A stretch of DNA of 32,000 bases from assembly GCA_027460535.1 (NCBI GenBank), contig JAPZAR010000027.1, positions 180,001 to 212,000 on the forward strand. Reading direction: 5' to 3'. The position numbers and the translations under genes are program-made. The notes under the pieces were generated by a model, which saw only the letters and a list, made by a program, of their open reading frames with translations, was not told the DNA's origin and did no database searches. The stretch comes from Candidatus Methanoperedens sp. GTDB lineage: Archaea; Halobacteriota; Methanosarcinia; Methanosarcinales; Methanoperedenaceae. Positions 5,744-30,795 of this stretch are shown piece after piece; position 1 is the first letter of the stretch, and each line of letters opens with the position of its first letter.

Positions 5744-6697
5744 ATGAATGCCACGCTCACAGACCATTTCGGCAGGACCATATCAAGCCTTCGTATTTCA
5801 ATAACCCGGAGATGCAACCTGGGGTGCATTTACTGCCACGAAGAAGGGGATAAAGAGAGCTCTCTCCGGGAAATATCCCCTGATACTACGGCAAAAATCG
5901 TGAGAGCCGCAACTGAATTCGGCGTGGGAAAAGTAAAATTCTCGGGAGGTGAGCCTTTAATGAGAAACGATTTTGAAGATATTATTGCGGGATTGCCTCC
6001 TTTGAAGGACATATCCGCCACAACAAACGGAGTATTGCTCTCAGTGAGAGCAGCTTCGTTAGCGGATAAAGGCCTTGACCGGGTGAACATCAGTCTTCCC
6101 TCGTTGAATGAGGAACATTACAGGGCAATAACGGGGTCATCGCGGCTTCCCGCGGTAATTGAAGGGATCAATGCGGCTGTAGATACCGGATTGACCCCGA
6201 TCAAGCTCAACATGGTTCTATTGAAAGGCATCAATGAGAATGAGATAGAAAATGCTATTGAGTTTGCGGCGGGTTATGATGGAAATGTTATCCTGCAGCT
6301 CATCGAGCTGATGAATTTTAAAAATCTGGCTCAATTCATGGTTGATATTGATAGTGTGGAGAGAATGCTGGAATCAAGGGCATCTGCCGTCAGGGAGCGT
6401 GAATTGCACCGCAGGAAAAAATATTTTGTGGACGGGATCGAGGTCGAGCTTGTAAGGCCTATAGACAATTCGAAATTCTGCGCCAACTGCAACAGACTGA
6501 GGGTAACATCAAGCGGGAAGTTGAAGACATGCCTGATGCGGAATGATAACCTTATCGAAATAGATGAGGGAGCGACAGTATTTGAAATAAAAGAACTCCT
6601 CAGGAAAGCTGTCGAAGTAAGGGAACCTTACTGTAAAAATAATGGGCCCGCGGAGATTCGAACTCCGGACCTCCGCCATGTCAAGGCGACGTCATAA
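5744..6697 (+). CDS. moaA: GTP 3',8-cyclase MoaA (molybdenum cofactor biosynthesis, radical SAM)
   Basis: Has the CNLGCIYC radical-SAM cluster motif, GGEPLMR, and the C-terminal auxiliary cluster CANCNRLRVTSSGKLKTC. The last ~18 codons are antisense to tRNA-Val. Confidence 0.9.
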   Translation: MNATLTDHFGRTISSLRISITRRCNLGCIYCHEEGDKESSLREISPDTTAKIVRAATEFGVGKVKFSGGEPLMRNDFEDIIAGLPPLKDISATTNGVLLSVRAASLADKGLDRVNISLPSLNEEHYRAITGSSRLPAVIEGINAAVDTGLTPIKLNMVLLKGINENEIENAIEFAAGYDGNVILQLIELMNFKNLAQFMVDIDSVERMLESRASAVRERELHRRKKYFVDGIEVELVRPIDNSKFCANCNRLRVTSSGKLKTCLMRNDNLIEIDEGATVFEIKELLRKAVEVREPYCKNNGPAEIRTPDLRHVKATS

Positions 6698-6716
6698 CCG
6701 ACTAGACCACGAGCCC
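6643..6716 (-). tRNA. tRNA-Val (anticodon GAC)
   Basis: Hand fold of the reverse complement: acceptor GGGCTCG/CGGGCCC, anticodon arm TCGCC-TTGACAT-GGCGG, T arm CGGAG-TTCGAAT-CTCCG, discriminator A. Total 74 nt. Confidence 0.9.
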
Positions 6717-26051: not shown

Positions 26052-27530
26052 TTGATGAGCCCAGATATGCCCCCAATATTCGAAATTATAAACAAGGACA
26101 TCTGCGGTCGCATCGGGCGCCTTGAAACGCCGCATGGCACGGTGGAAACACCTGTTATTATGCCGGTTGTCAATCCCAATATCCAGACTATCAGGCCCGA
26201 TGAACTCCGGGACATAGGTGCTGAAATCATAATAACGAATTCCTATATCATTTATCGAAAACCGGAGCTCAGGGAGCGCGCCCTGAGAGAGGGATTGCAC
26301 TCTCTTCTGGGTTTTGACGGCCCGATAATGACAGATTCTGGGTCCTACCAGTTATCTGTTTATGGTGAAGTGGAAGTGAATAATAAGGAAATAGTCCAAT
26401 TCCAGCAGGAGATAGGCTCTGATATCGGCGTTCCGCTGGATATTCCCACGCCTCCGGATGTATCCAGAGAGCGGGCCGAATCGGAACTTGAAATAACCCA
26501 AAAGAGAGCAAAAGAAGCCCTGGGTTTAAAAAAGGATATGCTTCTGGCCGGACCTGTGCAGGGATCTACATTCCCTGATTTGCGTGAGCGCGCTGCGCGG
26601 GAGTTGAGCCAGCTTGATTTCGACATTTATCCGCTTGGGGCAGTTGTTCCCTTGATGGAAAATTACCGCTATTCAGACCTCGTGGACGTTATCGTGGCAT
26701 CGAAAAAAGGACTCTCACCTTCAGCTCCGGTCCACCTTTTTGGTGCTGGACACCCTGCGATGTTCTCCCTGGCGGTCGCGCTTGGCTGTGATCTATTCGA
26801 TTCTGCCTCATATGCCCTCTATGCCAAAGAGGGGCGGTACATGACAGTAAGGGGCACGTATCATCTGGATAAGCTCCAGTACCTGCCATGCTCATGCCCT
26901 GTATGTATTTCCCATGACGCGGGGAAGCTGATGAAAAGCGAAAAGCGGGAAGAACTGCTCGCGCGCCATAATCTCTACGCGACCTTCGAAGAGATGCGCG
27001 AAGTCAAGCAGGCAATAAAAGAAGGGAGCCTCTGGGAACTTGTGGAGCAGCGGTGCAGGTCACATCCCCAGCTCCTCAACGGGCTTAAGCGCGCGCTCCA
27101 TTACTCGGACTGGATAGAACAGTTCCAGCCAGTATCGAGATCCACCTTCTTTTACGGGGGGCCGGAATCGGCGCAGAGACCTGAGATATCAAGGTGCAGG
27201 AAAAAGCTCAGGAATCTCGATCTCAGGGGGAAAGTCCTGATCAGGGAACACAGGCTTGAAAAAGAGGAAGATTTCGACTGGGTACTTGAATTCAAAGCAC
27301 CCTTTGGCGCATATCCGCTTGAACTCAAGGAAACGTATCCCTTCAATGCCGAGGTGATCGATGAACCGGACTATGAGGCGCTGACGGTCGCGCTTCAAAA
27401 TACTCTTGAACTGATTGAGGCGAATCATGAGGCTGAGTTCACGTTCGTGTATGAGAGGGAGCATCCACTGATGGAAGAAATCGCGCAAAGAGCTATGTTG
27501 ATAACAAAAAGAGAAGATGGGCGCATTTGA
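26052..27530 (+). CDS. tgtA: Archaeosine tRNA-guanine(15) transglycosylase (ArcTGT)
   Basis: FEIINKDICGRIGRLETPHGTVETPVIMPVVNP, the TDSGSYQ motif, and the zinc site CSCPVC...H. At 492 aa it has no obvious C-terminal PUA domain. Confidence 0.9.
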   Translation: MMSPDMPPIFEIINKDICGRIGRLETPHGTVETPVIMPVVNPNIQTIRPDELRDIGAEIIITNSYIIYRKPELRERALREGLHSLLGFDGPIMTDSGSYQLSVYGEVEVNNKEIVQFQQEIGSDIGVPLDIPTPPDVSRERAESELEITQKRAKEALGLKKDMLLAGPVQGSTFPDLRERAARELSQLDFDIYPLGAVVPLMENYRYSDLVDVIVASKKGLSPSAPVHLFGAGHPAMFSLAVALGCDLFDSASYALYAKEGRYMTVRGTYHLDKLQYLPCSCPVCISHDAGKLMKSEKREELLARHNLYATFEEMREVKQAIKEGSLWELVEQRCRSHPQLLNGLKRALHYSDWIEQFQPVSRSTFFYGGPESAQRPEISRCRKKLRNLDLRGKVLIREHRLEKEEDFDWVLEFKAPFGAYPLELKETYPFNAEVIDEPDYEALTVALQNTLELIEANHEAEFTFVYEREHPLMEEIAQRAMLITKREDGRI

Positions 27531-27588
27531 GGGCTATATATAATATAGTGCGAAAGATTTAAGAATTATCAATACTATATTGTTGATA

Positions 27589-28905
27589 ATGACCTATGAA
27601 GAGATAATTATCAGGCAGAACCGGCACTGGAGGGGCGAAAAATTTCCCACAGGCATAGAGAGGGATATCAAGTTCGAGGTTCTGAAATTTCTTGAAACAA
27701 AATACGTTCTTGTAATAACAGGGGTCAGAAGGTCAGGTAAATCCTATCTACTTTTTCAACTTGTGGACGTTTTCTTAAAAAAATTACCGCCCGAAAACGT
27801 GCTCTATGTGAATTTCGATGATCCCGTTTTCCTGAGATTAATAACCGATCCTAATGGCATCGAAACCCTCTACAGGGATTACTTAAAGCTTAAAAACCCA
27901 AAAGGGATAAAGTATTTGCTGTTTGATGAAATCCAGAACGTTCCAAACTGGGAGAAGTGGATAAAAGCATCCTACGATATGGAGGAAGGTATAAGGTTCA
28001 TAATAACAGGCTCGAATGCTACGCTGTTATCCTCTGAACTCTCAACGCTCCTGACTGGAAGAAACCTTCAGTTTGAGGTATTTCCCTTTAATTTCAGGGA
28101 AATACTGAAAGCAAAGGGTGAAGATATAATCGTATCGCCTGACCCCAGAGAGATTTATGTGAGGAATTACGGGATAAAGGACACACTGAGGCATCATCTT
28201 GACGAGGTGCTTAAATGGGGTAGTTTCCCCGAGGTTGTTTTTCTTGATGAATCGCAGAGGGAGGCTGTTTTAAAAGAATATTATAAGGATATCCTATACA
28301 GGGACATCGTTCCCCGCTTTGAGGTGAGGCACGCTAATAAACTTGAAGAGATAGCCTATTTTGTAATGGGGAATATTTCAAACGCTGTGAGCTACCATAA
28401 TATCGGGGAACTTGCAGGAACCCATGAGAATACAGTCAGGGAATATCTTACTTATTTTGAAAAAGCCTATCTTTCGTTTCAGGTTGCTAAATTTTCATAC
28501 TCACTGAAAGAGCAAATAAAAAATCCAAAGAAGGTTTATTTCATCGATACGGGGATGAGAAATACCGTGTCTTTCAGGTTTTCACAGGATATCGGGAGGC
28601 TCTGCGAGAACCTTGTTTTTATTGACCTCAGGAGAAGGGGGAAGAAGGTTTATTACTGGAAGGGAAAGGGCGAAGTTGATTTTGTTGTAATGGAAGGCAT
28701 GAAGGTGGAGCAGTTGATCCAGGTATGCTGGGATATCAATGATGCTAAGACGAAGGAGAGGGAGGTGGCGGGGCTTGTGGAGGCTATGAGGAGTGTTGAG
28801 GTTGAGGAGGGGATTGTTGTGACGGATGATTATTTTGGGGAGGAGGAGAGGGAGGGGAAGAGGGTGAGGTTTGTGCCGCTGTGGTGCTGGCTGGTGAGGG
28901 AGTGA
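27589..28905 (+). CDS. AAA-type ATPase of the archaeal COG1373 / DUF4143 family
   Basis: Walker A is GVRRSGKS and Walker B is YLLFDEIQNVPNWEKW, with a DUF4143-like middle and a C-terminal nuclease-fold-like tail (GEVDFVV). ATG 27589 is preferred over TTG 27580. Confidence 0.85.
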   Translation: MTYEEIIIRQNRHWRGEKFPTGIERDIKFEVLKFLETKYVLVITGVRRSGKSYLLFQLVDVFLKKLPPENVLYVNFDDPVFLRLITDPNGIETLYRDYLKLKNPKGIKYLLFDEIQNVPNWEKWIKASYDMEEGIRFIITGSNATLLSSELSTLLTGRNLQFEVFPFNFREILKAKGEDIIVSPDPREIYVRNYGIKDTLRHHLDEVLKWGSFPEVVFLDESQREAVLKEYYKDILYRDIVPRFEVRHANKLEEIAYFVMGNISNAVSYHNIGELAGTHENTVREYLTYFEKAYLSFQVAKFSYSLKEQIKNPKKVYFIDTGMRNTVSFRFSQDIGRLCENLVFIDLRRRGKKVYYWKGKGEVDFVVMEGMKVEQLIQVCWDINDAKTKEREVAGLVEAMRSVEVEEGIVVTDDYFGEEEREGKRVRFVPLWCWLVRE

Positions 28906-29006
28906 GGGGTATTAGGGCTGATGCAAAGAGGTTGTAACACGGTGATGGTTATTTTAATTTCTGTTTTATTTGTTCAAGAGTTTCGCTTATTTTCTTAATG
29001 TAGTCT

Positions 29007-29219
29007 TCAATCTTTCCCGACATTTTCAATTCTCAGCACTAAAAAAGTAGGGGCAAGGAATTCTAATTTTCCAAATACTTTTGGAATTACCGTTGCTTTT
29101 CTAGCAACTCTCTGTTCTTCAAGAATTTCATTTGTAGAATAGGCATACCATATTGTAACGCCGGCTAGTACCGCCGTGGCAATAGCAAGAACGATGGTAC
29201 TTATTTCTATACTGTCCAT
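29007..29219 (-). CDS. Hypothetical 70-aa protein with an N-terminal TM helix
   Basis: The ORF has a hydrophobic N-terminus (ISTIVLAIATAVLAGVTIWYAY). I recognise no family, and it may be truncated. Confidence 0.35.
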   Translation of the reverse strand: MDSIEISTIVLAIATAVLAGVTIWYAYSTNEILEEQRVARKATVIPKVFGKLEFLAPTFLVLRIENVGKD

Positions 29220-29352
29220 AGTTACTCCTATTCAACCATACAATTATTTTTCGACTATAAGATAATTGTGTAAATTAGCATATTAAACCTTGTCAATTAA
29301 AATTGCGCATATTTTTGTTATGTTATCTGATATTCTAATAAGATGATCACTG

Positions 29353-29440
29353 CGCCGAGGACGGGATTCGAACCCGCGATGACCTGACGTGATCTATCAG
29401 ATTATCAGTCTGACGCCTTACCTGGCTAGACTACCTCGGC
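29353..29440 (-). tRNA. Class II tRNA with Ser-type architecture (long variable arm, G73) but anticodon GAT (Ile)
   Basis: Hand fold: GCCGAGG-TA-GTCT-AGCCAGGTA-AGGC-G-TCAGA-CTGATAA-TCTGA-TAGATCACGTCAGGTCATC-GCGGG-TTCGAATCCCGT-CCTCGGC-G. The acceptor has 7/7 Watson-Crick pairs, and U33, A37 and the T loop are canonical. Total 88 nt. Confidence 0.7.
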
Positions 29441-29463
29441 ACGATTTCTACCATGCTTTCAGT

Positions 29464-29473
29464 ATTTCTAAAG
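29464..29473 (-). promoter_or_regulatory. TATA-like box (TTTAGAAATA) for the class II tRNA
   Basis: It lies at -24 to -33 relative to the tRNA 5' end at 29440, the expected archaeal TATA position. Confidence 0.35.
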
Positions 29474-29547
29474 AATCTCCTAGCGGTGTGAAAGTATTAT
29501 CGGATTTCCAAGCAAATACTTAAATAATAGGGAAGATAGAAGATATT

Positions 29548-29585
29548 CTGACGTGATCAATCAGACATCAGTCTACAACTAGACT
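29548..29585 (-). repeat. Degenerate partial copy of the class II tRNA (D stem to variable arm, with the D loop deleted)
   Basis: On the plus strand, CTGACGTGATCaATCAGAcATCAGTCTacaacTAGACT aligns to 29384-29432 of the tRNA gene. There is no T arm or acceptor 3' strand. Confidence 0.5.
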
Positions 29586-29640
29586 GCCGGGGCGCATGCA
29601 TGATGCCTGCGCCCTTCTGTTTCTCTATTCTTTAAGGCGC

Positions 29641-30795
29641 TCAACCGAAAGTAAAAGTGAATGCCTGAAGACCGGGGTTCTCTATAACGATCTCAAGCGT
29701 ATGTTCGCCATAACCTGTGGGGTCTTCAATGAGTTTATAGAGACGGGATTCGGTCACATTAACGATGCTTGAACCATTTTTGTTCATAACATCTGCTCCG
29801 GCTTCATTTCCAAGCTGCTTGCCATCACGAAAAATTTGGATTATCGCACCGTCTTTTGCGCTTGCCACAAAATAAACGCTCTTTGCGTTATAGTGGAAAA
29901 TGACCTTTGCCTGTGGATTTTCATTTTCAGCATATTCTTCCTGAAAATTCCAGCTTCCCACGAGATAGAGGGTGTTGATATTGATTTCTGCGGGTTCGGA
30001 AAGGTTTTGAATCCCAACCATATTAGGCATTCCATTGCCAAGATATGTATTCCTGGCCGCACCAAAATAAACCTCTGGGCTTCCCACTTTTGTAAAATCA
30101 ACATCCACTGCGCTTGCAGGCTTTGAAATTTGAGTGGTAACCTTTTCATTTATATTCAAAACCGCCATCCTCTCCTGCAAAAGTTCCTGGATCTTCTGCT
30201 CCGCTTCATCGTATGCCCCTTCGCCAATATGGTCATAGACTATGAACCCATCTATATCGATGAGATATTTATGAGGCCAGTAGAGGTTGCCGTAAGCGGT
30301 CCATGTTGAATAATTGTTGTCCATAACCACAGGATATTTAACGCCGAATTTGTTCACCGCAGCAAGCACGTTTTCATATTTTTGTTCAAAGAGGAACTCA
30401 GGGGTGTGCACTCCAATGATCTCAAGCCCTTTATCCCCGTACTTTTCATACCAGCTGTTGAGATAGGGTATGGTCCGCTGGCAGTTGATACAACTGTATG
30501 TCCAGAAATCGATAAGAATGACCTTCTTGCCAATAAGCTCAGACACCGTGATCTTATCCGTGTTGATATAGCCGGAAGGATTAACAATTTCCTTGGCGAA
30601 TGGATATTTTGCCAGCTTATCTCTATTGAGAATTCTTTCTTCCTGTGCGGCGTTCGATAAGTTTCCTGCTGCGACGTTAGGCCGGATCACAGCTTCCTGT
30701 GGTGATATCCTCACAGGTTTCAGCGACTCTAAATATGTGATCGCCGAGGCAATCGCAATAAGAACCAGGATGAGAGTGATTGTTTTTGTTTTCAT
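29641..30795 (-). CDS. Membrane-anchored thioredoxin-like (redoxin) protein with a C-terminal beta-rich domain (DipZ C-terminal-like)
   Basis: N-terminal anchor is MKTKTITLILVLIAIASA. The redoxin motif is VILIDFWTYSCINCQRTIPYL (CxxC). It has a 4-nt overlap with ccdA upstream. Confidence 0.85.
   Translation of the reverse strand: MKTKTITLILVLIAIASAITYLESLKPVRISPQEAVIRPNVAAGNLSNAAQEERILNRDKLAKYPFAKEIVNPSGYINTDKITVSELIGKKVILIDFWTYSCINCQRTIPYLNSWYEKYGDKGLEIIGVHTPEFLFEQKYENVLAAVNKFGVKYPVVMDNNYSTWTAYGNLYWPHKYLIDIDGFIVYDHIGEGAYDEAEQKIQELLQERMAVLNINEKVTTQISKPASAVDVDFTKVGSPEVYFGAARNTYLGNGMPNMVGIQNLSEPAEININTLYLVGSWNFQEEYAENENPQAKVIFHYNAKSVYFVASAKDGAIIQIFRDGKQLGNEAGADVMNKNGSSIVNVTESRLYKLIEDPTGYGEHTLEIVIENPGLQAFTFTFG

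Follow-up and report, generated by a model that had tools for sequence, protein, structure and literature searches.

We analysed a 32,000-nucleotide (nt) stretch of a genome of the methane-oxidising archaeon Candidatus Methanoperedens sp. (GenBank assembly GCA_027460535.1, contig JAPZAR010000027.1, positions 180,001 to 212,000; hereafter the window), which carries at 29353..29440 on its minus strand an 88-nt class II transfer RNA (tRNA) gene that joins a serine-type body to the isoleucine anticodon GAU. Based on its intact structure, a complete set of reported identity elements for seryl-tRNA synthetase (SerRS) and its conservation across three lineages, we tentatively propose, with a confidence slightly short of even, that the GAU tRNA is a maintained dual-identity tRNA that would be serylated by SerRS and able to read AUC and AUU codons with low effective activity.

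Structure and identity elements of the GAU tRNA

The Rfam tRNA model RF00005 matched 29353-29440(-) over its whole length (model positions 1-71 of 71) with a score of 61.0 bits (E 4.8e-11; gathering score 29 bits), the alignment placing a 15-nt insertion within the variable region, and ARAGORN called a tRNA-Ile(gat) at 29352-29440(-). These searches, together with a script that checked the pairs, bear out the full 88-nt cloverleaf that an earlier reading, made without database searches (the sequence-only reading), had drawn by hand with its 7/7 acceptor stem, T loop, U33, A37 and G73. The acceptor stem (GCCGAGG/CCTCGGC, read by eye and checked by script) is Watson-Crick at 7/7 pairs, the D stem (GUCU/AGGC) has 4 bp with one U.G pair (U11.G24), the anticodon stem is UCAGA/UCUGA, and the T arm (GCGGG-UUCGAAU-CCCGU) includes G49.U65; no stem is disrupted. 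The discriminator is G73 (window 29353), and the universal tRNA nucleotides are all intact (U8, A14, G18 G19, G53-C61, U54 U55 C56 and A58). No CCA is encoded, either here or in the two other tRNA genes of the window.

The anticodon loop, CUGAUAA, has U33, G34 A35 U36 and A37. The covariance-model alignment, ARAGORN and an index check agree in placing the anticodon at 29404..29406(-), with A35 corresponding to plus-strand T29405, the base that the sequence-only reading had named as the one that changes the anticodon, and the covariance-model fold puts GAU, not a Ser anticodon, at positions 34-36. By inspection of the alignment no other loop register gives a Ser anticodon (NGA or GCU), and GAU stands in every copy; a shifted register in which U33 G34 A35 would give UGA was ruled out, as it would require a G30-A38 closing pair. 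The variable region, UAGAUCACGUCAGGUCAUC (29378..29396(-), from the covariance-model alignment and a pair check), has the 19 nt given in the sequence-only reading and forms a weak stem. The stem drawn there (GAUCAC/GUCAUC, 6 bp with a C.C mismatch) is possible, but a 4-bp GAUC/GGUC version with a 6-nt loop is marginally more stable (-29.4 vs -28.4 kcal/mol), and the one change found in this region in another lineage (A to G, in locus L122) fits either folding. The possibility that the variable region hides an intron, whose removal would yield a class I tRNA-Ile, was ruled out by the lack of bulge-helix-bulge geometry and by the Ser-like D loop, G73 and acceptor stem. The discriminator of tRNA-Leu is A73, and tRNA-Sec has a 9/4 (archaeal) acceptor/T geometry, a D stem of 6-7 bp and a UCA anticodon; with G73, 7/5 geometry and a 4-bp D stem, the GAU tRNA is neither of these, nor is it an allo-tRNA. 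Under permissive Rfam thresholds, nothing credible from other RNA families was found at 28900-29700.

The determinants reported for the two SerRS types of Methanosarcina barkeri are G73, G30-C40, G1-C72 and unpaired nucleotides at the foot of the extra arm (PMC9976931), and all of them are present in the GAU tRNA, whose long arm has an unpaired foot. G73 is also an antideterminant for archaeal leucyl-tRNA synthetase (LeuRS) (PMC9976931). Position 35 is the only difference from canonical archaeal tRNA-Ser(GCU) in the D arm and anticodon arm, and identity over the gene is 72-78% to canonical archaeal tRNA-Ser(GCU), a set chosen via the shared anticodon arm, whereas the tRNA-Val and tRNA-Gln of the window reach 57-58%. 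The description of the gene as a Ser-type class II body carrying GAU stands, on the long arm (19 nt, where anything above 10 nt counts as long), G73 and the complete set of SerRS determinants. For isoleucine, the strong determinants are the anticodon, N6-threonylcarbamoyladenosine at position 37 (t6A37) and A73, to which E. coli adds the stem pairs C4-G69, 12-23 and C29-G41 (PMC9976931); the GAU tRNA has the anticodon GAU and A37, but it has G73 instead of A73 and a 19-nt variable region, and it lacks the E. coli stem pairs.

Distribution, ancestry and conservation

An identical 88-nt tRNA is present in three assemblies of the source organism (NCBI GCA_027460495.1, Logan SRR20964297 and ENA ERZ27248265; loci L001, L002 and L003), in each of which the neighbouring thioredoxin-like protein is also encoded (on JAPZAT010000002.1 in GCA_027460495.1). 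We scanned 185,579 species-representative genomes with the D/anticodon arm pattern AAGGCGTCAGACT-NNN-AATCTGA and obtained 118 loci: 87 with GTA, which are bacterial tRNA-Tyr, 27 with GCT, which are the canonical tRNA-Ser(GCU) of Methanomassiliicoccales, three with CAT, which are of tRNA-Met type and include those of Methanocellales, and a single one with GAT. This last locus (L053), in Ca. Methanoperedens sp. SMAG_U7350, carries this tRNA with a single additional U in its D loop; its contig in extended form (L133/L134) carries a tRNA near-identical to that of the window. When JGI metagenomes were scanned for the version with GAT, one further locus (L122) emerged, with the D-loop U plus the A-to-G change in the variable arm. 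All copies across the three lineages have GAT, and since the gene is identical in three assemblies and recurs in other lineages an assembly error at T29405 is ruled out, in keeping with the view of the sequence-only reading that GAT is no one-off error.

The sequence-only reading had noted that the anticodon is one substitution from Ser-GCU. While this is formally so, the arm scan found no Methanoperedens representative genome with the same D/anticodon arm and GCT, and the GAU tRNA is therefore not a recent point mutant of a resident tRNA-Ser(GCU) but, as judged from these comparisons, an old, diverged paralogue. The ancestry of this paralogue is only weakly indicated by its anticodon arm: the 23-nt arm AAGGCGTCAGACU-NNN-AAUCUGA is common to archaeal tRNA-Ser(GCU), Methanocellales tRNA-Met(CAU) and Caulobacterales/Hyphomicrobiales tRNA-Tyr(GUA) (L013-L121), and arm identity thus says little about descent. 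The tRNA genes on the loci that we retrieved were for Gln, Val, Lys, Ala and Met only.

The case for selective maintenance comes from the alignment of the three lineages, in which the tRNA has 0/88 and 1/88 substitutions and its upstream flank 37/170 and 40/179 (~22%; Fisher p 7e-8 and 4e-7). In the adjacent thioredoxin-like gene, divergence at four-fold sites is 41-51% when the window is compared with L130 and L132, two loci that carry the upstream module, and the probability of one difference or none in 88 neutral sites at such divergence is less than 1e-18; the four-fold figure is that of L130 and L132, the direct comparison for L053 and L122 being the upstream flank. Conservation is 99-100% over the full length of the tRNA, with the T arm and the 3' acceptor strand included. 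Based on this contrast with flank and four-fold divergence, it is very unlikely that the GAU tRNA is a pseudogene, and the decaying tRNA-Ser(GCU) duplicate that the sequence-only reading had offered as an alternative is contradicted by the strong conservation and the undisrupted stems.

Apart from this gene, the genetic code of the source is standard. In a neighbouring gene of 384 codons the 29 AUU/AUC (AUY) codons align to Ile (62%), Val or Leu in 91 distant homologs, with AUY codons at the invariant Ile positions 103 and 202 and AGY codons at the invariant Ser positions 101 and 239. Because AUY falls in Ile columns and AGY at invariant Ser, AUY must mean Ile, and a working AGY-reading tRNA-Ser together with normal Ile decoding must, on this sequence comparison, be provided elsewhere in the genome; this codon-by-column analysis ruled out both a reassignment of AUY and a loss of AGY decoding.

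Fold, flanking sequences and genomic context

RNAfold predicted a non-cloverleaf structure for the GAU tRNA with a minimum free energy of -38.0 kcal/mol, compared with -33.6 kcal/mol when the cloverleaf stems were enforced, and the non-cloverleaf was favoured by 4.4-4.8 kcal/mol in all three tRNA variants. In this alternative fold AGUCU (9-13) pairs with AGACU (29-33) and AUCUGAU pairs with GUCAGGU, so that the anticodon is buried and the anticodon stem dissolved. For nine canonical tRNA-Ser(GCU) with the same anticodon arm, in a control that keeps the acceptor, anticodon and T stems, the gap was zero or less. Predictions from unmodified sequence often miss real cloverleaves, and many real tRNAs fail a fold test of this kind without their modifications; we take the predicted alternative fold as a caution and a lead, which leaves the tRNA status of the gene standing.

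A TATA-like A/T-rich box, TTTAGAAATA, read from the sequence at 29464..29473(-), lies at -33..-24 from the mature 5' end, where the sequence-only reading had placed it; comparable boxes lie at about -40..-25 in L053 and L122, and its placement resembles that of the boxes upstream of the tRNA-Gln and tRNA-Val of the window. Further upstream, at 29482..29527(-), two blocks, TTATTTAAG(G/T)ATTTGCTTG... and ACTTTCAC(A/C)CCGCT, are kept in the window, L053/L133, L122, L130 and L132 and may represent an alternative promoter or a leader. On the other side, a 10-nt 3' trailer, CAGTGATCAT (29343..29352(-)), is invariant in the three lineages, and the sequence beyond it is unrelated between them. An oligo-T run is absent 3' of the GAU tRNA but present after the tRNA-Gln and tRNA-Val in the same window. 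In an RNAalifold prediction from three sequences the trailer motif AUCAU pairs with the leader motif AUGRU (29452-29456(-)), with a few compensatory changes further out, and this weakly supported pairing may form a processing helix of leader and trailer. As a separate observation, a perfect 15-nt inverted repeat, GAAATACTGAAAGCA, occurs at 28099-28113(+), inside the PDC-S01 ATPase gene described below, and at 29454-29468(-), in the promoter/leader of the tRNA (chance alone would give about 0.03 matches of this kind in 6 kb); in other lineages this part of the leader is different.

The degenerate copy with GAT that the sequence-only reading had noticed near the gene is real, an 18-nt direct repeat upstream of the tRNA at 29548-29565 that matches 29384-29401 of the tRNA at 17/18 positions, but it proved to be part of a conserved repeated element of ~78 nt (29546..29622(-); nhmmer E 6e-24) that is related, GAT included, to the 5' two-thirds of the tRNA. 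The element, with the consensus AAAACAAAAGGGCGCAGGCATC.AGCGAGCGCCCCGGCAGTCT....AGACTGATATCTGATTGATCACGTCAC, aligns through its positions 31-75 to about the first 56 nt of the tRNA (nhmmer E 0.003). Its predicted fold has two hairpins, H1 (GGGCGCA/TGCGCCC, 29590-29614(-)) and H2 (CAGTCTA/TAGACTG, 29569-29586(-)), counterparts of the two hairpins in the alternative fold of the tRNA; the outer six pairs of H2 are invariant, and its seventh is A-T in the window, G-C in L133, L122 and the first L130 copy and mismatched elsewhere, which amounts to weak covariation. Copies occur in all lineages with the module (L130 97-174, 1618-1689 and 3642-3719; L132 1918-1993; L133 9607-9685; L122 1-75) and are 80-90% identical to each other, far more diverged than the tRNA. 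Three of them lie in the 3.7-kb contig L130, where, in the order copy a, peptidase S8, copy b, DsbD-Trx, copy c, they separate successive gene blocks, and in L132 the element persists without the tRNA. Based on this arrangement the element may mark attachment-site (att)-like sequences or cassette junctions, or it may be a small mobile element derived from a tRNA. A tRNA-linked att site of a mobile element would show direct repeats of a tRNA segment around inserted DNA; here copies flank gene blocks in L130 and variable genes adjoin the module on either side, the repeat spans the 5' part of the tRNA where the 3' part is usual, and its copies are of old date.

The housekeeping genes of the window (for a MoaA-like protein, a DnaG-type Toprim protein, GlmS, a GlmU-like protein, phosphoglucomutase and TgtA), together with the Candidatus Methanoperedens homologs of the thioredoxin-like protein, place it on the chromosome of an ANME-2d archaeon and not on an extrachromosomal element. 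Searches of IMG/VR (with the anticodon arm, the element and the 3' half) and of PLSDB gave no matches, and based on this and the chromosomal surroundings we rejected a viral, plasmid or Borg-like origin, Borg genomes being outside the search. Orthologous loci had been suggested as a comparison by the sequence-only reading; among ten loci around homologs of the thioredoxin gene or of a HEAT-repeat gene, none has a tRNA-Ser(GCU) at the equivalent place and most are without the tRNA module. The tRNA is absent from L123/L124 (where the protein is 84% identical), L125, L126/L127, L128, L129, L131, L135 and L136, and the L130 contig, which has the upstream module, stops short of the tRNA position. 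In L132 (GCA_036704725.1, 1918-2295) the element and the promoter-like blocks are kept, and from about -30 an unrelated CT-rich sequence replaces the tRNA, which on sequence comparison makes this a natural deletion or replacement allele. In L133/L134 the module lies between a gene for an ArcS-like protein with tRNA-guanine transglycosylase (TGT), DUF5591 and PUA domains, which is directly adjacent, and the HEAT-repeat gene. Relative to L133, the source genome has a ~4-kb block of four genes (PMSR, lactonase, DsbD and thioredoxin-like) between the ArcS-like gene and the module, and the genes downstream of the trailer differ in every lineage. As its absence from relatives shows the tRNA to be dispensable, it is, on these comparisons of gene order, an accessory gene of patchy occurrence, flanked on both sides by variable gene blocks in a rearrangement hot spot.

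The next gene 3' of the tRNA in the window codes for an AAA_14/DUF4143 ATPase (27580-28905(+)) that matches the PADLOC candidate defence family PDC-S01 (E 1.8e-122) and that is missing at this position in other lineages. On the other side of the tRNA is the gene for the thioredoxin-like (Thioredoxin_10/Redoxin) protein (29641-30795(-)), which has homologs in Candidatus Methanoperedens; its best matches beyond Methanoperedens are to Patescibacteria (CPR, the candidate phyla radiation), at 57-62% identity. The DsbD-redoxin pair changes genomic context among Methanoperedens genomes, and the sequence matches suggest inter-domain transfer. Two genes of the TGT family lie within a few kb of the GAU tRNA, that for TgtA, the archaeosine tRNA-ribosyltransferase (26052-27530(+); TIGR00432, 643 bits), and that for the ArcS-like TGT/DUF5591/PUA protein (L001 5260-7062); such a neighbourhood of tRNA-modification genes is probably a coincidence. 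No aminoacyl-tRNA synthetase gene adjoins the GAU tRNA. Elsewhere in the window, a MoaA-like radical SAM open reading frame (ORF; 5744-6697(+)), whose Pfam match ends at residue 296 of 317, extends 55 nt into the tRNA-Val(GAC) gene (6643-6716(-)) on the opposite strand.

These surroundings bear on the strongest rival to a decoding role, namely that the gene is selected for a function outside decoding, whether as a tRNA-like, regulatory or structural RNA acting through the alternative fold, or as a DNA landmark that works with the repeated element at an att-like cassette hot spot. We regard such a role as unlikely, though well short of negligible. It would fit a module whose gene content differs on both sides in every lineage, element copies that flank successive gene blocks in L130, the ~4-kb block inserted in the source between the ArcS-like gene and the element, and a candidate defence ATPase, of a kind typical of variable islands, just 3' of the tRNA. 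It would likewise fit a non-cloverleaf favoured by ~4.5 kcal/mol whose two hairpins the element keeps, and the conserved mismatched nev-tRNAs of nematodes (discussed below), which show that such genes need not mistranslate. However, the ORFs of the window with Pfam annotation include no integrase or recombinase (the check was not exhaustive for small and unannotated ORFs), and viral or plasmid matches were likewise absent. The tRNA retains every universal nucleotide and is 99-100% identical where the element is 80-90% identical, this conservation extending to the T arm and 3' acceptor strand, which lie outside the element; conservation of the tRNA throughout, alongside a diverged element, fits constraint on a folded tRNA and not on a short att core.

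Charging, decoding and known counterparts

For the dual-identity tRNA that we tentatively favour, the course of events would be as follows. Transcription would start from a TATA-like promoter of the gene's own, the transcript would mature in the manner of other tRNAs, and the product would acquire t6A37. SerRS, which ignores the anticodon, would charge it with serine, the reported Methanosarcinales determinants all being present, and it would then deliver Ser to AUC and AUU codons in competition with the normal tRNA-Ile(GAU). Its impact would be kept small by the weak variable stem, G49.U65, the U.G pair in the D stem, the lack of an oligo-T terminator and the anticodon-burying misfold. We infer transcription, serylation, ribosomal use and attenuation from these features, and a precedent for serylation and decoding is given by yeast, in which a tRNASer body with GAU is serylated and inserts Ser at AUC/AUU (PMC6125640). 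A more elaborate version, in which the gene would be a naturally encoded and probably conditional or attenuated Ile-to-Ser device, kept by purifying selection and possibly switched by its fold or by modification, within a plastic, defence-bearing locus and alongside a tRNA-derived element that marks where gene cassettes are inserted, is one that we put forward as a doubtful possibility.

Several points weigh against serylation and decoding. The yeast construct, tS-I(GAU), was among the most toxic of 64 tRNASer anticodon variants (PMC6125640), and the long-term retention of an active version is therefore hard to explain; nev-tRNAs are conserved and misacylated in vitro with no detectable mistranslation in vivo (PMC4300185). 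GAU and A37 are the strongest determinants for isoleucyl-tRNA synthetase (IleRS), and some or all of the charging could be with Ile. Compared with canonical Ser(GCU) arms, which have a 5-bp stem and a 3-nt loop, the variable arm is unusual, and this might impair recognition by SerRS. If the RNA adopts the predicted misfold, it may not function as a tRNA at all, and with every position of the tRNA conserved the anticodon is not singled out as the selected feature.

An improbable alternative is that IleRS charges the RNA through its anticodon loop (G34 A35 U36, t6A37 and A38), which would make it an extra, odd-shaped tRNA-Ile(GAU) that causes no mistranslation. In its favour, Ile identity depends strongly on the anticodon and position 37 (PMC9976931), a normal tRNA-Ile(GAU) has this same loop, CUGAUAA, and the toxicity problem would disappear; yet G73 stands in place of the strong determinant A73, C4-G69, 12-23 and C29-G41 are absent, the SerRS determinants are complete, and an extra tRNA-Ile gives no obvious reason to keep a Ser-type body unchanged. 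To our knowledge there is no class II tRNA-Ile, and in yeast the GAU anticodon left the tRNASer body serylated and inserting Ser (PMC6125640). Hardly credible is a non-functional relic, whether a decaying C35A duplicate of tRNA-Ser(GCU) or a sequencing or assembly artefact, since the formal distance of one substitution from GCU, the dispensability implied by absence in most related genomes and loss in L132, and the missing oligo-T terminator are set against identity in three assemblies, GAT in three lineages, 0-1 substitutions per 88 nt at 41-51% four-fold divergence (P < 1e-18 under neutrality), intact stems and the want of a Methanoperedens arm with GCT from which a recent copy could derive.

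The dual-identity reading has counterparts outside the archaea, the nearest in type being the nematode nev-tRNAs, which also combine a class II body with the anticodon of a class I amino acid (isoleucine included, and also Gly), are conserved across species (PMC3333845, PMC4300185, PMC4033280), have a charging that is predicted by the body and not the anticodon, and have an unclear physiological role. They differ in being eukaryotic and multi-copy, with a Leu-type body (Leu-charged in vitro) and anticodons for rare codons, whereas the GAU tRNA is archaeal and single copy, has a Ser-type body (G73) and would read AUC/AUU, codons that occur 29 times in the neighbouring gene of 384 codons. Bacterial allo-tRNAs (Mukai et al., NAR 2017) share the Ser-like long arm, in some cases G73, and mostly non-Ser anticodons, Ile UAU being the most abundant, and they too are rare, patchy and found beside mobile, toxin-antitoxin or variable genes (PMC5389517); they are bacterial, however, and have 8/4 or 9/3 acceptor/T-stem geometry, unlike the archaeal GAU tRNA with its canonical 7/5.

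A Ser body with a non-Ser anticodon, charged by a SerRS that is blind to the anticodon and hence delivering Ser to the wrong codon, is also found in tRNASer(CAG) of Candida and the CTG clade, the yeast tS-I(GAU) construct and human tRNASer-AGA G35A (PMC6125640, PMC11415595), and among these tS-I(GAU) is the exact functional analogue of the GAU tRNA (PMC6125640). Candida tRNASer(CAG) drove a codon reassignment and has G33 and m1G37 as tuning features, and the yeast and human variants are engineered or recent polymorphisms; in contrast, the GAU tRNA coexists with a standard code, has the canonical U33 and is an old conserved gene. The Streptomyces tRNAProX (ProA, ProN and ProT), which accompany ProRSx, are natural conserved dual-identity tRNAs and mistranslate when expressed, but their body is of class I Pro type with A33, and a synthetase paralogue dedicated to them is encoded alongside, whereas no synthetase lies beside the GAU tRNA. 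As in these natural cases, the mismatch of body and anticodon in the GAU tRNA is kept, here in three lineages with 0-1 substitutions per 88 nt. Archaeal cases are missing both from a review of encoded mistranslation published in 2024 and from a 2014 survey of the diversity of tRNA genes, the latter also giving none of nev type in bacteria, and in the searchable literature we found neither an archaeal counterpart nor a description of Methanoperedens tRNAs of this kind; as far as that literature shows, the GAU tRNA is the first archaeal tRNA with a mismatch of body and anticodon.

Such tRNAs are rare test cases for how much ambiguity in the genetic code can be tolerated, and the known cases are from yeasts, nematodes, a few bacteria and human polymorphisms. 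One practical consequence is that annotation pipelines will label the gene as tRNA-Ile and thereby inflate the apparent Ile decoding capacity of the genome. There is also an awkward contrast between the high toxicity of Ser for Ile at AUC/AUU in yeast and a gene that has stayed unchanged amid 40-50% neutral divergence. If the GAU tRNA is unused in translation, it would be a conserved tRNA-like RNA that plays some other part within a hot spot of recombination. Charging with Ser, in turn, would represent deliberate or tolerated mistranslation in an archaeon, and the Methanoperedens lineages with and without the gene would offer a natural comparison of carriers and non-carriers.

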